A stretch of 34,668 bases of DNA from Parcubacteria group bacterium (lineage in GTDB: Bacteria; Patescibacteriota; Minisyncoccia; Moranbacterales; UBA11712): the NCBI GenBank assembly GCA_041661585.1, contig JBAZUC010000003.1, positions 1 to 34,668 of the forward strand, written 5' to 3'. A program made the position numbers and the translations under genes. The notes below the pieces were generated by a model. The model did no database searches, was not told where the DNA came from, and saw only the letters and a list, made by a program, of their open reading frames with translations. Each line of letters begins with the position of its first letter. Within the stretch, counting starts at the first letter, position 1. Of the stretch, positions 660 through 33,923 are shown in pieces.

Positions 660-1492
660 TTTTCGTTTGGCGCTTTGCATTCAAAAATTATGTCTCCCTT
701 CTCATCCGTCCGCAAAATTTCGATATTTCTTGATTTCAATGAGTTTAGCACCGCTTCTGTCGGATGGCCGTATGAATTTTTCGCGGCCACCGAAATGATG
801 GCTGCGCCCGGACTCGTTGCGTCCAAAAATTCGTCGCTTGAGGAATATTTTGAGCCATGATGGGCGATTTTCAAAAAATCAACGTCAACGTTTTCTCCGC
901 TCGCCAAAATTTCACGCTCGGCAGGAGATTCGATATCGCCCGTGAAAAGGAAAGAATTGTTTCCCCAATCGAGCCTCGCAACGACCGATTTGTTGTTCGC
1001 GTCTCCAGTTGCCGGGTCAACTGCTGAATTGGGAGAAACAATTTTTAGCTTTGCTCCATCCATTTCCACCTCGTCGCCCAGGATCGCCTCAAGCGTTTCA
1101 ATTCTATCGTACTCGCGAATATCTTTCCACTCCTTGAAAACCACTGTGTCTTTTTCCGCGCCCGTTGTGAGAACTTTTCCGATTTTATAATTTTTCGCCA
1201 CATCGACCAACCCGCCGATATGGTCCCGGTCCGGATGAGTCGCGATCACGACTTCAATCTCACGGTCGAAGTAGGGAAGATATTTCCCAAGTTCCGCCAG
1301 CTCCGTTTTCCCGTTCGGACCGCCGTCGATCAAAATTTGTTTTGTTCTCTTTTGGATCAGAATTGAATCCCCCTGCCCGACATCAAGAAAAACAATTTGT
1401 AGAGGTTTAGCCTCTACGATTATTTGATAGGAAAAATAGGCGAAGAAAATCAGTAAAATGGCGATCGCAAAATAGAAAAATTTATTTTTCAT
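635..1492 (-). CDS. ComEC-type metallo-beta-lactamase-fold protein with its own N-terminal TM helix
   Basis: 285-aa ORF. Contains the HxHxDH-like motif ATHPDRDHIGG, plus LDVGQGDS and IAHHGS, as in the C-terminal MBL domain of ComEC/Rec2. Overlaps the upstream comEC ORF by 11 nt. Confidence 0.75.
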   Translation of the reverse strand: MKNKFFYFAIAILLIFFAYFSYQIIVEAKPLQIVFLDVGQGDSILIQKRTKQILIDGGPNGKTELAELGKYLPYFDREIEVVIATHPDRDHIGGLVDVAKNYKIGKVLTTGAEKDTVVFKEWKDIREYDRIETLEAILGDEVEMDGAKLKIVSPNSAVDPATGDANNKSVVARLDWGNNSFLFTGDIESPAEREILASGENVDVDFLKIAHHGSKYSSSDEFLDATSPGAAIISVAAKNSYGHPTEAVLNSLKSRNIEILRTDEKGDIIFECKAPNEKCKATTQN

Positions 1493-3020
1493 TCTTGAGC
1501 ACGCTAAGTCGCTTATCTTTTCTTTTTGAGTAGTATAGCACCGAGATTAAAATAATATAATAAACCGTGATATGCTTCCAGCCGAAGTTTTTGATCTCAA
1601 GCGATGACCAGGAAATGTTCGCGAGCCATTGAACGATCAACAATTCCAATTTCAGAAGAACATACGGAACAAATCCGATCAGCTTCCCGAGCGGGATAAA
1701 AATAAATCCCGCCATTCCCGCCGCGAACCCCGTCCCCATTATAAATGGTATGGCCGGCAGAATCAGCAAATTGGCCAGCGGCGCGATCACAGAAAGTTTT
1801 TCAAAATTTGCCAAAATCACCGGCAAAACAAAAATTTGCGCCGCCAGAGTCATCAAAATTGTTTCTTTCAAAATGTTCTGCTCTCTCTCGAAAAATTTTT
1901 TTTCGAAGAGGGGATAGACATAAACGATTCCCAAAGTTGCCAAAAAGGACAGCTGAAATCCGGCGTCATATCGCAAAAGAAGCGGATTGATCGCAAGCAT
2001 CGCCGCACCCGCGAAAAGAATCGCATTTTGGGAATTGGCCAGTCTCCCCTCTTTCATCGCCCAGATAACAAGTCCGCCCATTATTCCCGCTCTCACGGCA
2101 GAACTCGGCGCGCCGGTCATGAGAACAAAAAGTACAATGCCGATGAGCGCGAAAGAAAAAACTTGTTGGCGCCAAAGACCAAGAGCAATTCCGAGCCACA
2201 TCAAAAACGCGGCGACAATTGTCACATTGTATCCCGAAACTGCGACCGTATGCGTCGTTCCTGTCCGCGAAAACGCGTCGTTCAAATCTTTGGTCATCCG
2301 TTTGCTTCCGCCCAAGATGAGCCCCTTGAGATACGCTCCTTCCGGATCGGGAAAAACCGCCGAAAGTTTTTCTTCGAACTTACTTTTCAACACCAAGACC
2401 GCTGAATAAAATTTGTTTCCCCTGTTTTTCGCGACCACAGCTATTTGCGCCTTGTTGCAAATCCGATAAATCCCGCCTTTTGCCAGATACATTTGATAAT
2501 CGAAGCTCGAGTCTTCCTGATTTTTAGGCGCTTGTAGATTGCAGCTCACTTTCAATTCATCGCCATAATTATAACTTGGATAGATGTCAGCATTGATCAA
2601 TATCTTATTTTTCTCTTCGTCCGAAACGACAACTTTTTGATATTTTTCATCCGTTTCCGGTTCCTTTGCGACTGTTCCCACAAATTCAACTGAGCCCAAT
2701 TTGCTATCAGCCAAACTATTTTTTGCTTTATCGATAGAGTTGTTTGTCCACCACAAACCCAGCGCCAAAAACAAAACCGCCGCGCTGGCGAATATGACTT
2801 TTTTGTTTTTGTAATTTATGACGAAGATAAAAATTCCCGCGGAGACAAGAATCAGAATAAAATATTTTTCAATCTGAAAAAACGACGCCAAAAAAACGCC
2901 GAGCAAAAAACAAAGAGATACGATGAAAAATATTTTAGACCCCGTTAGAAATCTGTTTTGAGGTTTTATCGTTTGGGCCATTTGTTTAGAATTAATTTCT
3001 AACGGGGTAAATTTACTCAC
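1482..3020 (-). CDS. comEC: ComEC/Rec2 competence channel protein (OB/DUF4131 plus polytopic competence domain, lacking the MBL domain)
   Basis: 512-aa polytopic ORF with ComEC-like segments (TGTTHTVAVSGYNVTIV, GAPSSAVRAGIMG). The track start at 3020 is GTG; an alternative ATG lies at 2981. The first roughly 27 codons are encoded by the inverted-repeat element at 2939-3008. Confidence 0.75.
   Translation of the reverse strand: MSKFTPLEINSKQMAQTIKPQNRFLTGSKIFFIVSLCFLLGVFLASFFQIEKYFILILVSAGIFIFVINYKNKKVIFASAAVLFLALGLWWTNNSIDKAKNSLADSKLGSVEFVGTVAKEPETDEKYQKVVVSDEEKNKILINADIYPSYNYGDELKVSCNLQAPKNQEDSSFDYQMYLAKGGIYRICNKAQIAVVAKNRGNKFYSAVLVLKSKFEEKLSAVFPDPEGAYLKGLILGGSKRMTKDLNDAFSRTGTTHTVAVSGYNVTIVAAFLMWLGIALGLWRQQVFSFALIGIVLFVLMTGAPSSAVRAGIMGGLVIWAMKEGRLANSQNAILFAGAAMLAINPLLLRYDAGFQLSFLATLGIVYVYPLFEKKFFEREQNILKETILMTLAAQIFVLPVILANFEKLSVIAPLANLLILPAIPFIMGTGFAAGMAGFIFIPLGKLIGFVPYVLLKLELLIVQWLANISWSSLEIKNFGWKHITVYYIILISVLYYSKRKDKRLSVLKNEK
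2939..3008. repeat. Inverted-repeat element, copy B (14-bp perfect arms ACCCCGTTAGAAAT / ATTTCTAACGGGGT, 42-nt interior)
   Basis: Arms at 2939-2952 and 2995-3008 are exact reverse complements. They share 13 nt of each arm with the element at 4934-5015, plus 6 further flanking nt (minus-strand 19-mer AAATTTACCCCGTTAGAAA in both copies). Confidence 0.7.
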
Positions 3021-3026
3021 AAGATC

Positions 3027-3035
3027 ATTATATCA
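3027..3035 (-). promoter_or_regulatory. Possible extended -10 promoter (TGATATAAT) for comEC
   Basis: The minus strand reads TTTTTTTGATATAATGATCTTGTGAGT, giving a TGnTATAAT match immediately after the terminator T-run. No convincing -35 element. Confidence 0.3.
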
Positions 3036-3066
3036 AAAAAAGCGGGCAGATTCACTGATCTGCCCT
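3035..3066 (-). terminator. Rho-independent terminator downstream of the 41-aa ORF
   Basis: 8-bp stem GGGCAGAT / ATCTGCCC (3044-3051 with 3058-3065) and a 6-nt loop. On the minus strand it is followed by T7 (complement of the A-run at 3035-3041). Confidence 0.6.
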
Positions 3067-3091
3067 TTGTTGTCTTGCCGATTTTTCGACA

Positions 3092-3217
3092 TTATTCTTC
3101 GTGTTCCTCCGTGTCTTGTTCTTCCTGTCCCCGTTTAACAGGAACACTTCGTCCCGCTACGAGCAGAAGAGCCCCAAACGCAACCACAACCAGAACAACT
3201 TTATAGCCCCATACCAT
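3092..3217 (-). CDS. Small membrane protein, 41 aa (not in the ORF track)
   Basis: My translation is MVWGYKVVLVVVAFGALLLVAGRSVPVKRGQEEQDTEEHEE: one hydrophobic helix and an acidic tail. A strong SD (GGGGAGGG) ends 6 nt before the ATG, and the terminator at 3035-3066 follows. Confidence 0.45.
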   Translation of the reverse strand: MVWGYKVVLVVVAFGALLLVAGRSVPVKRGQEEQDTEEHEE

Positions 3218-3251
3218 GAATTCCCTCCCCAACTATAAGATAGTTTAACAA

Positions 3252-3479
3252 CTAGTCCTGCATATCCACGTCTACTATTTTTATTCTCGCCGACTTTCCG
3301 GCGATTATTTTCACCGAACTTTTGGGCACTGCCAAATGGTACGCCAAAAGTTCGACAACTTTTTCATTTGCCTTTCCCTTTTCCGGCGGAGCGGTCACTT
3401 TCACCCTATATTCGCCGTCGGAAACTTTCAGAACTTCGTTTTTCCCCGCCCTCGGGGTCACTCTGACGTAGATTCGCAT
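3252..3479 (-). CDS. DUF167 (YggU-like) family protein
   Basis: 75-aa ORF MRIYVRVTPRAGKNEV...VKVTAPPEKGKANEKVVELLA, which fits the characteristic DUF167 pattern. Confidence 0.7.
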   Translation of the reverse strand: MRIYVRVTPRAGKNEVLKVSDGEYRVKVTAPPEKGKANEKVVELLAYHLAVPKSSVKIIAGKSARIKIVDVDMQD

Positions 3480-4357
3480 ATATTTTTTCCCTCCCTATCA
3501 ACAAAAATTGCTTTTAATTTTTTCTTTTTGGCAAATGCTATGCCTTTTTTCATCCCCATCAACACCAAAACTTTCGCCCGTCCATCGGCCCATTCGGTTT
3601 TTTTGTGAAAAACCAGAACCGAACGGATTTCGAAAGAAAATTTTTCAGGATTTCGAGGATTCACGAGATGATGAACGTTTTTTCCCTTATGCTTCCACTT
3701 CTTTTTTATCACGCCGGAAGTAGCAATGCCTTGATTGGAAATGCAAACCGCCGCGTTTTTGTCTCGCGCGCCCTCAATCGGCAATTTCCATTTTTCACCT
3801 TTTTTATTTCGTCCGGCAGCAAAGGCGTCCCCGCCCGCGTTGATGAAAAAATTTTTCCAGCTTCGGCTTTTCAAAAATTCCGCCACTTGGTCGATGATAT
3901 ATCCTTTGGCGATTCCGGAAAAATCCATCCGACGGCCGAAGAATATTTTGTTTCGCTTAATTTTCAGATCAGCGGACAGATTTTTCGGCTTGTTTTTTGC
4001 CGGTTTCGAATCCTTATTTTCAATATTTTTGCTTTTGTATCCAATATTTTCCAAAATATCAATTATCCGCGGATCATATAGTCCGCCGCTTTCCCGATGA
4101 TAAAAAAGCGCCCGCTTGGCAAGATAAATCATATCCGGCGAAACATTTTGCCACATTCCCAAATTTTTGTTCAATTGGCAAAGCTCGCTTTCGGAATCAA
4201 AGCGAGAGAATATTTTTTCCTTGGCGAAAAAAATATCTTTCGCTTTTTTGAGATCATCTTGCGCCTTTTCTTTTTCCGTTTCACTGTCAACAATCGTGCG
4301 GATATTGATTTCCGTACCCAGAGCTCGAAAATTTGATTTTATTTCGGATTTCTTAAT
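3458..4357 (-). CDS. apbE: FAD:protein FMN transferase (ApbE family); start codon unresolved
   Basis: Motifs GIAKGYIIDQVAEFL, NAGGDAF, GIATSG and HHLVNPRN. The track ORF starts at TTG 4174. The same frame is open up to 4389 and encodes ApbE-like N-terminal sequence (FRALGTEINIRTIV...FSRFDSESELCQLN) with no ATG, GTG or TTG. The end coordinate 4357 assumes an ATT start. Confidence 0.7.
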   Translation of the reverse strand: MKKSEIKSNFRALGTEINIRTIVDSETEKEKAQDDLKKAKDIFFAKEKIFSRFDSESELCQLNKNLGMWQNVSPDMIYLAKRALFYHRESGGLYDPRIIDILENIGYKSKNIENKDSKPAKNKPKNLSADLKIKRNKIFFGRRMDFSGIAKGYIIDQVAEFLKSRSWKNFFINAGGDAFAAGRNKKGEKWKLPIEGARDKNAAVCISNQGIATSGVIKKKWKHKGKNVHHLVNPRNPEKFSFEIRSVLVFHKKTEWADGRAKVLVLMGMKKGIAFAKKKKLKAIFVDREGKNICESTSE

Positions 4358-4366
4358 ACTTATATA

Positions 4367-4393
4367 ATCTCCAAGAGCTAAGCTCTTGGAGAT
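4367..4393 (-). terminator. Strong intercistronic hairpin (terminator- or processing-like) between the 84-aa ORF and apbE
   Basis: 12-bp perfect stem ATCTCCAAGAGC / GCTCTTGGAGAT with a 3-nt loop. On the minus strand it is followed by UAUAUAAGUAUU (A/U-rich, no clean U-run). Confidence 0.35.
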
Positions 4394-4399
4394 GGATGA

Positions 4400-4654
4400 T
4401 TAGTTCACTATTTTCTTGATCTCGCCTTTCAGATTGTCATCAATCTGATCAGGAAGCATATCCCCCGGCAGATTGTGAATGGTGGCTTCGCGATAGACGA
4501 ATCCCTCAACCTTTCTTACGACTTTTTTCAGAAAATCTTTTTCCGGCTTTTGAATTGTCAAGGAAAACGGCGAAAAACTCACCGAAAAAATCCCGCCGAG
4601 CCAGGCGACGGCAATTGCAAGGACTATGATGATGAGAAATAGCTTTTTGATCAT
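4400..4654 (-). CDS. Hypothetical small membrane protein (one N-terminal TM helix)
   Basis: 84-aa ORF MIKKLFLIIIVLAIAVAWLGG.... Its start abuts the nrdG stop by a 1-nt overlap, suggesting co-translation with the nrd operon. Confidence 0.5.
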   Translation of the reverse strand: MIKKLFLIIIVLAIAVAWLGGIFSVSFSPFSLTIQKPEKDFLKKVVRKVEGFVYREATIHNLPGDMLPDQIDDNLKGEIKKIVN

Positions 4655-5433
4655 TATCGTATTTCCACTTTTCCAAAATATTTTTCAATATTCTTGGCGA
4701 TTTTTTCCAAATTCAATCTCTTCCCCTTTGTTTTTTTCACGAGATTCGGGTCGAGTATTTTCCCCTTGTCCTCAAACGCCTGCAAAACATATTTTTTCGA
4801 TCCTTTCAGCCACTCCCCAATACTCGCAAAATCGCTTTTTTTGTGTAACCCGGGAACGGCCGTTGTGCGAAATTCGTAGTCAACGCCGCTGTTTCGTATC
4901 AAATCCACACTTAGTCTTATACGCTCCATGTCCACCCCGTTAGAAAAACCCATAGAATACTGTTTTTCTTTGGCATTATTGCTTTTATCGTCTTTAATAC
5001 GTTTTCTAACGGGGTAAATTTTTGAATTCGCTGTTTCGGCGTATTTTTCGGGATAATTTTTGATATCCATTGCCACAAAATCAAGCAGCTTTTCCGCATA
5101 TAGAAGCCTCAAGACGTCAGGCCTGGTTCCGTTCGTATCAAGCTTTACTTTGAATCCCGAATTTTTTATTTTCCGGATAAATTCGATCAAGTCCGGCTGA
5201 ATCGTCGGTTCCCCTCCGGTGATGCATACGCCTTCCAGTTTTCCCTGTCTGCTTTTCAATAAATCAAAAAACTCTTTTTCGAGAACATTTGATGCGCTAT
5301 GTTTGGCACCAGATACCAACTCCGGATTGTGACAAAACGGACAGCGAAAATTGCAACCCACAGTGAAAACCGTCGCGGCGATGTGGCCGGGAAAATCAAT
5401 GAGCGTCAATTTTTGAAGACCGCCAATTGTCAT
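4654..5433 (-). CDS. nrdG: Anaerobic ribonucleoside-triphosphate reductase activating protein (radical SAM)
   Basis: Motifs DFPGHIAATVFTVGCNFRCPFCHNPEL, ITGGEPT, KLDTNG and YEFRTT. Lies downstream of nrdD. Carries an insertion of about 28 aa encoded by the inverted-repeat element at 4934-5015. Confidence 0.85.
   Translation of the reverse strand: MTIGGLQKLTLIDFPGHIAATVFTVGCNFRCPFCHNPELVSGAKHSASNVLEKEFFDLLKSRQGKLEGVCITGGEPTIQPDLIEFIRKIKNSGFKVKLDTNGTRPDVLRLLYAEKLLDFVAMDIKNYPEKYAETANSKIYPVRKRIKDDKSNNAKEKQYSMGFSNGVDMERIRLSVDLIRNSGVDYEFRTTAVPGLHKKSDFASIGEWLKGSKKYVLQAFEDKGKILDPNLVKKTKGKRLNLEKIAKNIEKYFGKVEIR
4934..5015. repeat. Inverted-repeat element, copy A (14-bp perfect arms ACCCCGTTAGAAAA / TTTTCTAACGGGGT, 54-nt interior), stop-free inside nrdG
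   Basis: Arms at 4934-4947 and 5002-5015 are exact reverse complements. The arm sequence is shared with 2939-3008. Confidence 0.7.
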
Positions 5434-30327: not shown

Positions 30328-30429
30328 AATTTCAAATTCTAAATTTTAAATTTTAAATCAATTTTTAATTTTCCAATGACAGAATTTTAAAACATTTGAA
30401 ATTTAGTCATTTAGAATTGATTTGAAATT
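30328..30429. repeat. AT-rich imperfect palindrome in the lepB-hisS spacer
   Basis: AATTTCAAATTCTAAAT (30328-30344) pairs with ATTTAGAATTGATTTGAAATT (30409-30429), which is its complement with a 3-nt insertion. The surrounding sequence consists of AAATTT/GAAATT-type motifs. Confidence 0.45.
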
Positions 30430-30449
30430 TTAAATTTGAAATTGAAAAT

Positions 30450-31052
30450 TTAGAAAAACGAAGCTTTGCTGACTGGCCATGCGCGCAAAATCACTTTTCC
30501 CATCACATCCACTTCCGGCACCGGACCCCACGAGCGTGAATCGGAAGAATACTCACGATTGTCCCCCATCACAAAATATTCTCCGCCGAGCGTCATATTG
30601 ATTTCACCCGAGGTCATCACTGAAGTTGAAAGATATTTGCTCTCATTAAGAACAAAACCGTTCGGAGCTTCGGAGTTGAAAATTTTGACCTTGTCGCCGG
30701 AAATCTCAATTTTTTCTCCCGGCAAGCCGATGATGCGCTTGATATAAAAAATTTTCGGATTTTTCGGATAACGGAAAACAACCACGTCGCCGCGCTGGAG
30801 TTCTTTGAACGGCTTCACTGTGAAAGCACTGCCGATCGAAGTCGTTTTGTAGCCAAGCTCGTTGACTATCAAATACTGTTTGTCCTCGAAATTCGGCTCC
30901 ATTGAGGCCCCTTGCACGAAAAATGGCTGGATCAAAAAAACCCGGATGGGGACAATGATCACCACCACCCAGAAAACCATTTTCACGATCTCCCAAATAA
31001 CGCCCTTGAAACCATATTCTTCGGACTGATTTTCGATATTTTCTTCACTCAT
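30450..31052 (-). CDS. lepB: Signal peptidase I
   Basis: Motifs QGASMEPNF, RGDVVVF, KRIIGLPGE and GDNREYSSDSRSWG. The track start at 31088 is TTG and lies inside the predicted promoter. I prefer the ATG at 31052 (MSEENIE...). Confidence 0.9.
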   Translation of the reverse strand: MSEENIENQSEEYGFKGVIWEIVKMVFWVVVIIVPIRVFLIQPFFVQGASMEPNFEDKQYLIVNELGYKTTSIGSAFTVKPFKELQRGDVVVFRYPKNPKIFYIKRIIGLPGEKIEISGDKVKIFNSEAPNGFVLNESKYLSTSVMTSGEINMTLGGEYFVMGDNREYSSDSRSWGPVPEVDVMGKVILRAWPVSKASFF

Positions 31053-33247: not shown

Positions 33248-33802
33248 ATGAAAACAATTCTCATCGCCGGGCTTGGAAACCCAGGAAAAGAATACGCGAA
33301 AACCCGCCACAACGCCGGGTTCATGTTTGTGGATTATTTTCGCGAAAAATATCAGGAAGAGTTCGGTTTTTCAGAATGGAAATTGGACAAGAAATTGAAA
33401 TCGGAAATTAGCGTCGGGAAATGCCCTGGCAACAAAATAATCCTGATCAAGCCCCAAACTTTCATGAATCTTTCGGGCGAAGCGGTTTCGGCGGCGAAAA
33501 AATACTATAAAGTGAAACTTGAAGATATCCTTGTCGCACACGATGATATCGATCTTTTGCTTGGAAAGTATAAAATTTCCGTTGGATCTTCTTCGGCCGG
33601 ACACAACGGCGCGCAAAATATCATTGTTCTCGTCGGCACAAAAAACTTCACAAGAATCAGAATCGGCGTTGAAAATCGCAAAGATCGCAAGATTGCGACG
33701 GAGAAATATGTTCTGGGAAAATTCACGGCCGCGGAAATGAAAAAAATCTCAGGAATAATTTTTGAGATTTCGGAAGGGTTTATAAAGAAATATTTATCTT
33801 AA
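33248..33802 (+). CDS. pth: Peptidyl-tRNA hydrolase
   Basis: Motifs LIAGLGNPGKEYAKTRHNAGF, KPQTFMNLSG and HDDIDL. Confidence 0.93.
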   Translation: MKTILIAGLGNPGKEYAKTRHNAGFMFVDYFREKYQEEFGFSEWKLDKKLKSEISVGKCPGNKIILIKPQTFMNLSGEAVSAAKKYYKVKLEDILVAHDDIDLLLGKYKISVGSSSAGHNGAQNIIVLVGTKNFTRIRIGVENRKDRKIATEKYVLGKFTAAEMKKISGIIFEISEGFIKKYLS

Positions 33803-33923
33803 TTTTCAATTACCAATGTTCAATTTACAATGAATTTTCAATGATCCAATGTTCAATGTTTGAAAATTGAAAATTTAGAAATTGAGCCATTGATTGAAAA
33901 TTGTGAATTGAAAATTGAAAATT
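33801..33923. terminator. Long AT-rich imperfect palindrome filling the convergent pth/typA spacer (probable bidirectional terminator)
   Basis: The outer arms AATTTTCAATT (33801-33811) and AATTGAAAATT (33913-33923) are perfect complements. The inner arms TTCAATTTACAATGAATTTTCAATGATCCAATG and CCATTGATTGAAAATTGTGAATTGAA are imperfect. There is also a direct repeat CCAATGTTCAAT at 33813-33824 and 33846-33857. The palindrome abuts both stop codons. Confidence 0.55.

Follow-up and report, generated by a model that had tools for sequence, protein, structure and literature searches.

How an activase gene comes to carry an uninterrupted inverted repeat inside its reading frame is the question raised by the window analyzed here, a 34,668-nucleotide stretch of an ultra-small Parcubacteria group bacterium (contig JBAZUC010000003.1, positions 1 to 34,668). 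A preliminary description of this DNA had noted two perfect 14-nt arms around 54 nt at 4934-5015, within nrdG, the essential gene of the anaerobic ribonucleotide reductase activase, and had proposed that they delimit a small palindromic element, mobile or recombinogenic, which the coding region tolerates. On the evidence set out below, the 80-nt stretch in nrdG is probably a gene-less miniature copy from a family of very small mobile elements, whose full-size members of about 270-290 bp consist of one gene for a GIY-YIG nuclease of about 86 residues (UPF0213/Slx1-like). The family is defined by the terminal inverted arms CCCCGTTAGAAA...TTTCTAACGGGG and by the duplication of a 4-bp target that fits YNNR. 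The features of the nrdG locus are the following.

4934 to 4947, plus strand: left arm of the nrdG copy, ACCCCGTTAGAAAA, one half of an exact pair.
5002 to 5015, plus strand: right arm of the nrdG copy, TTTTCTAACGGGGT, the other half of the exact pair.
4935 to 5014, no strand: miniature element in nrdG, 80 nt from CCCC to GGGG, with two 12-nt family arms (13-14 nt here) and a unique interior.
4931 to 4934, no strand: left flanking 4-mer of the nrdG copy, TCCA, a degenerate copy of the putative target TCGA.
5015 to 5018, no strand: right flanking 4-mer of the nrdG copy, TAAA, likewise a degenerate copy of the putative target TCGA.
4654 to 5433, minus strand: nrdG, anaerobic ribonucleotide reductase activase, 259 aa, Pfam Radical_SAM and Fer4_12, with residues about 139-166 coming from the element and the duplicated 4 bp.

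The two arms of the nrdG copy are indeed exact reverse complements, separated by 54 nt. The same arms, which the preliminary description had recognized again at 2939-3008, form a second exact pair there, inside a comEC-type open reading frame (ORF).

2940 to 3007, no strand: miniature element in comEC, 68 nt; it shares the arms of the nrdG copy, its interior is unrelated, and it follows codon 3 in frame.
2939 to 2952, plus strand: left arm of the comEC copy, ACCCCGTTAGAAAT, with the flanking 4-mer TAGA at 2936-2939.
2995 to 3008, plus strand: right arm of the comEC copy, ATTTCTAACGGGGT, with the flanking 4-mer TAAA at 3008-3011.
1482 to 3020, minus strand: comEC-type ORF with DUF4131 and Competence domains, whose N-terminus MSK-FTPLEINSKQMAQTIKPQNRFLTG-SKIFF holds the second element.

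The arm common to both copies is the 12-mer CCCCGTTAGAAA, which occurs four times in the window against an expectation of 0.004. The interiors, in contrast, are unrelated: pairwise comparison gives no alignment between the 54 nt of the nrdG copy and the 42 nt of the comEC copy, and neither has any similarity to a nuclease. RNA folding, a check that had been recommended for this locus, predicts that the sense RNA of the nrdG copy forms one stem-loop, which the arms close (-27.9 kcal/mol, z = -4.5), while a single arm of this family forms no hairpin by itself. A search of Rfam gave no meaningful match across positions 2700-5300 at E values up to 10. The ORF at 4654-5433 is assigned to nrdG because of its Radical_SAM and Fer4_12 domains and its position downstream of nrdD and nrdR. 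This minus-strand ORF of 259 aa is continuous, as had been claimed, and crosses the element as KIYPVRKRIKDDKSNNAKEKQYSMGFSNGVDMERI with no stop; the copy is read through because its 80 nt plus 4 are divisible by three and the frame used holds no stop codon.

Comparison with orthologues places the insertion precisely. Most of the best 120 NrdG homologues have 231-232 aa, versus 259 aa in the window. None of the 120 has an insert at this site, and in the longer ones that were checked the difference lies at the N-terminus or elsewhere in the protein. When aligned, the homologues leave a clean 28-residue gap opposite YPVRK...FSNG, with the conserved residues intact on either side, so that the short linker ascribed to other NrdG proteins in the preliminary description is what the homologues actually have. 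The 28 extra codons amount to 84 nt, the sum of the element's 80 nt (CCCC to GGGG) and 4 more. The best NrdG matches point to a Patescibacteria-type host. In an AlphaFold2 model of the protein (mean pLDDT, the predicted local distance difference test, 68.5), residues 135-166 have a pLDDT below 50 and are placed as coil between helices 128-134 and 166-180. The insert is a hydrophilic, probably disordered loop of 28 residues, and the model is consistent with a tolerated surface loop, the location that the preliminary description had asked a structural model to examine.

Empty and filled alleles were read from public metagenome contigs aligned to the window, in eight runs and from contigs only. 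For nrdG, a 278-nt contig of run X5, with 0 and 3 differences on its two sides, joins position 4932 through a single G to position 5018 and reads ...CATGTC-G-ATTTTTG; a 264-nt contig of run X4, with 2 and 1 differences, joins 4929 through ATCG to 5018. Both of these empty alleles, on contigs 99% identical to the window, read AAA-ATC-GAY-ATG (K-I-D-M), matching the orthologues. The filled form is also present in run X4 and lies on a 688-nt contig in run X3; altogether it was assembled independently in runs X1, X2, X3 and X4. For comEC, a 1350-nt contig of run X5, about 97% identical to the window, joins 2940 straight to 3013 and lacks 72 nt (68 + 4), and this allele encodes MSKSKIFF... versus MSK-FTPLEINSKQMAQTIKPQNRFLTG-SKIFF in the window. 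Because each of the two loci is empty in contigs 97-99% identical to the window, the copies in nrdG and comEC are insertions that are polymorphic between strains. The net insertions of 84 and 72 nt equal 80 + 4 and 68 + 4 and match a rule of element plus 4 bp. From these alleles we infer TCGA as the insertion target in nrdG and TAGA as that in comEC. The nrdG copy entered TCGA within the Ile-Asp codons, with all conserved NrdG residues retained, and the comEC copy is the same kind of insertion at codon 4.

The flanks now present are TCCA/TAAA around the nrdG copy and TAGA/TAAA around the comEC copy, both compatible with YNNR and both imperfect copies of the target. The preliminary description had seen no clear target-site duplication. 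This is correct for the nrdG copy itself, with its flanks TCCA and TAAA, but not for the family, which has a 4-bp duplication, and the empty alleles show a gain of exactly the element plus 4 bp; the duplication went unseen because the flanks of both window copies are degenerate duplications. Carry-over of donor flanks, of a piggyBac-like kind, was considered as the source of the mismatched flanks and is not supported in general, since about half of the copies have perfect duplications.

The duplication becomes evident when the family is viewed beyond the window, by an arm-pair search of the kind that the preliminary description had proposed. One genome per species was scanned with the pattern CCCCGTTAGAAA-N30-60-TTTCTAACGGGG, which returned at least 119 stretches with short elements in other genomes; the 123-124 elements among the matches listed are the basis of the counts of short elements given here. 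Their size is 55-85 bp. The record titles name Patescibacteria, Pirellulales, Phycisphaerae, Omnitrophota, Nitrospirae, Desulfobacteria, Elusimicrobia, KSB1 and others, and the labels of the metagenome-assembled genomes (MAGs) include Planctomycetota, Nitrospirota and Desulfobacterota. The 4 bp that precede CCCC and the 4 bp that follow GGGG form an exact direct repeat in 64 of 123 listed elements and a repeat with one mismatch in a further 23. Registers of 3, 5 and 6 bp are nearly without matches (2, 5 and 0, respectively, among the matches listed), and we therefore conclude that the family makes a 4-bp target duplication (p = 4e-119). The flanks follow the rule YNNR, with Y in 95% at position -4 and R in 98% at position -1; the commonest are TTTA, TTCA, TAAA, TTGA and TGAA, mostly TNNA. 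The bases directly outside the arms covary (A..T 73, G..C 20, A..C 19, G..T 7; p = 6e-7), which reflects either a 13th pair of the stem or a symmetric target.

Perfect arms are not the normal condition of these elements. When arms were sought without the requirement of an exact pair, the partners usually had 1-2 mismatches, and all solo arms except one proved to be decayed short elements. Because the relaxed search finds such mismatched partners, the perfect arms of the scan represent the young tip of a decaying population and not an unusual conservation. The interiors are unrelated between copies except in small subfamilies. Their structure has a median z of about 0, and about 15% are strongly structured, with two short covarying hairpins. 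One subclass of 65 nt has two 7-bp hairpins with covarying stems that make a three-way junction with the arms, and its members are found in MAGs whose labels name different phyla:

L078, 9 to 73: member of the 65-nt two-hairpin subclass.
L055, 3209 to 3273: member of the same subclass.
L028, 5466 to 5530: member of the same subclass.
L077, 3624 to 3688: member of the same subclass.

Two further arrangements were noted among the matches. In L126 (3625-3897), copies of the right arm alternate with tRNA-like pieces in an array, and in L059 a solo arm at 3370 stands immediately upstream of what appears, as judged by eye, to be a tRNA-Pro gene. Carriage of the arm elements by phages was considered and rejected on the single match found in 2.9 million IMG/VR contigs.

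Many of the short elements live inside genes. ORFs of at least 120 codons run open through 57 of 124 listed elements, and the element length plus 4 is divisible by three in 76 of 123 (p = 1e-10). The arms are free of stops in two of the three frames, in both orientations, the third phase being blocked by a TAG or TAA in the arms. Among the 57 elements, 43 are read as xPVR(N/K)...(I/V/F)SNG(V/A) and 14 as (T/A)PLE...FLTG. They are enriched toward N-termini, with fewer than 30 open codons upstream in 20 of the 57, and about 15-18 elements sit exactly on a start codon (duplication A|TGAA or A|TGGA) and contain an ATG in frame, 5-10 codons ahead of the right arm. In L057, a Pirellulales contig, the gene of an adenine phosphoribosyltransferase (APRT) has an insert of 21 aa for which the solved APRT structure 4lza shows no counterpart, and its neighbor, a gene for a PrmC-type methyltransferase, holds another insert. 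The proposal of the preliminary description is thereby supported by orthologues lacking the segment, by empty sites, by a family with a 4-bp duplication and an excess of lengths that preserve the frame, and by the place of the insert in a low-confidence coil of the NrdG model.

A separate observation concerns three Planctomycetota loci (L040, L083 and L100), where elements read in the FLTG phase border directly on the prepilin-type motif G-F-T-(L/I)-(M/V)-E-L. These elements thus immediately precede the N-terminal cleavage/methylation site in proteins that resemble pilins.

What larger unit do such copies belong to? Metagenomes were scanned for the same arms 240-270 nt apart, which gave at least 120 stretches, with 125 arm pairs among the matches listed. 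These long pairs have lengths of 264-294, with a mode of 281-286. Similarity to GIY-YIG proteins was found in 76 of the 125 listed, 43-45 of them with an intact ORF, and the remaining 49 are arrays of adjoining short elements. The nuclease, of about 86 aa, fills the unit, its ORF opening a few bases past the left arm and closing in or just beyond the right arm. Its consensus is M.YvYvl.S.Kd..WYtG.T.dLrKRi..HN.gk..STK...Pw.lIYyEaclnk.DA.aREKYLKSGMGkrYLKNRLK. The ORFs match Pfam GIY-YIG (PF01541) with E = 1e-14 to 1e-18, an assignment to the generic family only, and the closest solved structures are UPF0213 BH0048 (1zg2) and SLX1. Relatives of the nuclease number 632 (representatives of clusters at 50% identity) at E values up to 1e-10 in a search of 1.84 billion proteins. 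In the nuclease-bearing units the 4-bp duplication is exact in 55 of 123, and the flanks show the same YNNR logo as those of the short elements.

The arms of the window copies are identical to those of the 76 GIY-YIG-bearing units. Because the same arms bound nuclease-encoding units of about 280 bp, we regard the window copies as miniature, non-autonomous derivatives; with interiors of 54 and 42 nt that show no nuclease similarity, they could only be non-autonomous members. The original view of the element is refined in this respect, in that the likely parent is a GIY-YIG-only unit of about 280 bp and no ordinary insertion sequence. At one locus (L141, 896-1176) a nuclease-bearing unit sits on a TATG duplication, whose left ATG opens a 3-codon ORF that ends at the TAG of the arm, while the nuclease ORF, of 86 aa at 911-1168, ends at the TAA of the right arm, 7 nt ahead of the ATG of the host gene. 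This layout suggests translational coupling to the host gene.

Starting from what is observed, that is, the arms, the insertions and their sizes, the empty alleles, the 4-bp duplication with its flank rule, the biases of frame and phase, and the nuclease-bearing units with identical ends, we propose the following mechanism. The two arms would pair into a stem, of 13 bp if the covarying outer pair is counted. The GIY-YIG nuclease of the family, the candidate mobilizing enzyme, would be encoded elsewhere, recognize this stem and mobilize gene-less copies in trans, and insertion would proceed via a break with a stagger of 4 nt. Copies landing in genes would survive only where the reading frame is kept, which would explain the biases in length and phase, and the nrdG copy could be accounted for in this way without any host function. 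Going further, one may envisage the units of about 280 bp as autonomous transposons with the nuclease of about 86 residues as their sole protein, the copies of 55-85 nt as derivatives adapted to genic life, and the family as currently mobile. We put this wider proposal forward tentatively, as a real possibility that falls somewhat short of being probable.

Several points weigh against the interpretation just given. No GIY-YIG gene is found within the 34.7-kb window. The short interiors have no detectable homology to the nuclease-bearing units, with no signal above shuffled controls except in a few composite arrays; the idea that they are deletion derivatives of the long units found no backing in this comparison, and the two classes are linked only by arms, flank rule and duplication length. 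GIY-YIG genes near short elements in named MAGs (L004, L038 and L079) were discarded as uninformative, being stand-alone and without arms. The flanks of the nrdG copy deviate from TCGA at 3 of 8 bases, although the neighborhood differs by only about 1%. A presence/absence polymorphism may reflect gain or loss, and it tells nothing of the enzyme responsible. Finally, translation of the insert is deduced from the reading frame, and no RNA run containing the nrdG gene was found.

It could be argued instead that the copies are ordinary MITEs (miniature transposable elements with inverted repeats) of an insertion sequence with a DDE transposase, of the IS1380/piggyBac kind, that a classical transposase moves them, and that the GIY-YIG gene is mere cargo of some copies. 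The 4-bp target duplication and the 5'-CCC termini do resemble piggyBac (target TTAA; terminal motifs CCCTT/CCCTC), of which IS1380 is the prokaryotic outgroup, and the fact that the short interiors are unrelated to the GIY-YIG copies speaks for this explanation as well. However, about 0.9 Mb around 120 short elements holds no recurring transposase-like ORF, the largest recurrent ORF clusters there looking like housekeeping genes on inspection of their sequences (glycosyltransferases, PilB-type ATPases, MreB), and no DDE/DDD transposase lies between the arms around 120 short and 125 long listed pairs. The solo arms are, with one exception, decayed short elements, and among arm pairs 0.5-3.5 kb apart none combines a common flank duplication with an enclosed transposase. 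The only larger arm-bounded units found are the GIY-YIG ones of about 280 bp (76 of the 125 listed arm pairs). The IS1380/piggyBac idea, with no transposase in the larger arm-bounded units or near the 120 loci, was dropped once the GIY-YIG units had been found, and we consider an origin from a DDE-type element very improbable.

Selection by the host would offer a different account, in which the stem serves as a structural or regulatory module and is kept for its control over translation, over the stability of the mRNA or over recombination, be it as an intragenic invertible segment or as a DNA-uptake-type signal by comEC. Such a role would fit the strong stem (-28 kcal/mol, z = -4.5), the inverted interior, which by our own reading of the sequence is likewise stop-free, the copy at the start of comEC, and the roughly 15 family members on start codons that supply an in-frame ATG. 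Yet close strains and all orthologues lack the nrdG insert, and Rfam has no match. Neither an inverted form nor a strand-changing joint was seen in the contigs of the eight runs, from which rare forms could escape, and the window contains no recombinase gene; an inverton was set aside on these two grounds. Four arms in 34.7 kb, with the same arms in many phyla, are unlike an uptake signal, and a DNA-uptake sequence was rejected on these grounds; an integron attC site was rejected on the order of the core motifs, again by our own reading. A host-selected module is in our judgement very improbable. As for a chance inverted repeat or an assembly artefact in a lineage-specific NrdG linker, other perfect inverted repeats of 13-14 nt do exist in this AT-rich window, but the 12-mer with four occurrences versus 0.004 expected, the filled allele assembled independently in X1-X4, and the hundreds of elements with identical arms elsewhere leave it next to no probability; it is already refuted by the data. 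The reading that we retain is that of a miniature copy from a family with GIY-YIG-encoding full-size members.

Other features of the window may be recorded here. The element in the comEC-type ORF begins just three codons past the GTG start, and an extended -10-like sequence, TGATATAAT, stands about 7 nt upstream of that start (window 3021-3045), which suggests that the message is leaderless or nearly so. The ComEC function is split, the ORF with Competence and DUF4131 domains (1482-3020) overlapping an ORF with a metallo-beta-lactamase fold (635-1492) by 11 nt. Downstream of nrdG, directly past the stop of an 84-aa ORF (4400-4654), a perfect 13-bp palindrome, ATCTCCAAGAGCT-A-AGCTCTTGGAGAT, at 4367-4393 is probably a terminator. 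AT-rich imperfect palindromic repeats of a family other than the arm elements occupy intergenic positions at 30328-30455, after lepB, and at 33797-33923, before typA. Between 9391 and 20513 there are nine successive radical-SAM genes on the minus strand, one of them with a SPASM domain.

With respect to the printed record, no paper was found that contains the arm sequence or describes such elements in these phyla. The family is undescribed as far as we could find; MITE-like elements in frame are already known, and a new class would be at hand if the nuclease is the transposase. Judged from sequence, hundreds of tiny elements across phyla bear one and the same 12-nt terminal motif, with nearly half of the short ones within host reading frames. 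Work on selfish DNA in frame within essential genes has until now dealt mainly with Rickettsia, and here such DNA would exist on a far larger scale. For annotation, spurious insertions of 20-30 residues and N-terminal extensions are to be expected in MAG proteomes, and for protein evolution the elements may be a steady supply of surface loops and start codons. The GIY-YIG-only unit of about 280 bp is a concrete candidate for a new kind of transposase, and the filled and empty alleles provide natural substrates and targets (TCGA and TAGA). Should the units prove to be autonomous transposons, they would be an enzymatically new class among the transposable elements of prokaryotes and, to our knowledge, the smallest self-contained one; the nrdG and comEC polymorphism between strains 97-99% identical would then be direct population-level evidence of current mobility.

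Among known systems, the family agrees with the general definition of a MITE, being small, with terminal inverted repeats, a target duplication, no transposase gene and multiple copies, two of them in the window. Like classical MITEs, and like Correia and ERIC elements, the short copies have no coding capacity, are numerous, and share their termini with a larger coding element. They depart from classical MITEs in that the parent is a unit of about 280 bp with a GIY-YIG nuclease instead of a DDE transposase, in their size of 55-85 bp, and in that nearly half of them lie in coding sequence. For a MITE with a transposase-encoding parent, a larger unit with the same ends does exist here; its protein is a GIY-YIG nuclease, a putative transposase, and homology of the interiors is undetectable. 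The 4-bp target duplication and the 5'-CCC ends are shared with piggyBac/IS1380, but no DDE/DDD transposase was found with the arms, and the target is YNNR, not TTAA. The piggyBac terminus is CCC...TAGA-like and resembles the arm ends. In REP/REPIN-RAYT systems and in IS200/IS605 with its PATEs, as here, a small single-domain nuclease gene is flanked by hairpin repeats that it supposedly spreads. The RAYT and IS200/IS605 enzymes, however, are HUH tyrosine nucleases that make no target duplication and use a fixed tetra- or pentanucleotide target, and their repeats are almost exclusively intergenic. That a miniature element and its autonomous partner may have only their termini in common is known from maize Ds1 versus Ac (PMC3260210).

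The Rickettsia palindromic elements (RPEs; Ogata et al. 2000) are, in the account given in PMC10969869, small palindromic repeats that lie in frame in unrelated housekeeping genes and are translated as extra surface segments; as far as that account goes, they measure about 100-150 bp, have conserved interiors and peptides, are limited to Rickettsia, and have no known mobilizing enzyme. Palindromic insertion in frame within housekeeping genes is common to both, and the RPEs set the precedent for it. Unlike RPEs so described, the present elements conserve 12-13 nt per end and have unique interiors, occur in many phyla, and have a candidate enzyme-bearing parent. The window copies, with unrelated interiors, lengths of 68-80 nt and a Patescibacteria-type host, are RPE-like by analogy only.

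The nearest published system is Ssn (CDD family cd10448), the site-specific single-stranded-DNA nucleases with their NTS/SRM hairpin repeats (Chenal et al., Nat Commun 2025, PMC11893778), with which the GIY-YIG-only unit also ties in. The NTS-ssnA-NTS layout looks insertion-sequence-like to its authors, who read it as domesticated and as modulating transformation; the SRM/NTS repeats are self-contained hairpins of about 30 bp (ATTCCC-N8-GGGAAT core), mostly intergenic and present in hundreds of copies, with neither a target duplication nor an insertion polymorphism reported (PMC11893778). The two systems share a single-domain GIY-YIG protein of about 90-100 aa and a gene bracketed by a short repeat that is also found in gene-less copies; a GIY-YIG gene with a repeat on both sides is found in the units of about 280 bp and not in the window copy. 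The present arms differ in sequence from the published NTS, a single arm makes no hairpin, and Pfam assigns the nuclease to the generic GIY-YIG family only. Unlike in Ssn, moreover, each of the two repeats makes up one half of a single stem around the gene, and they come with a 4-bp target duplication, empty sites and many intragenic copies.

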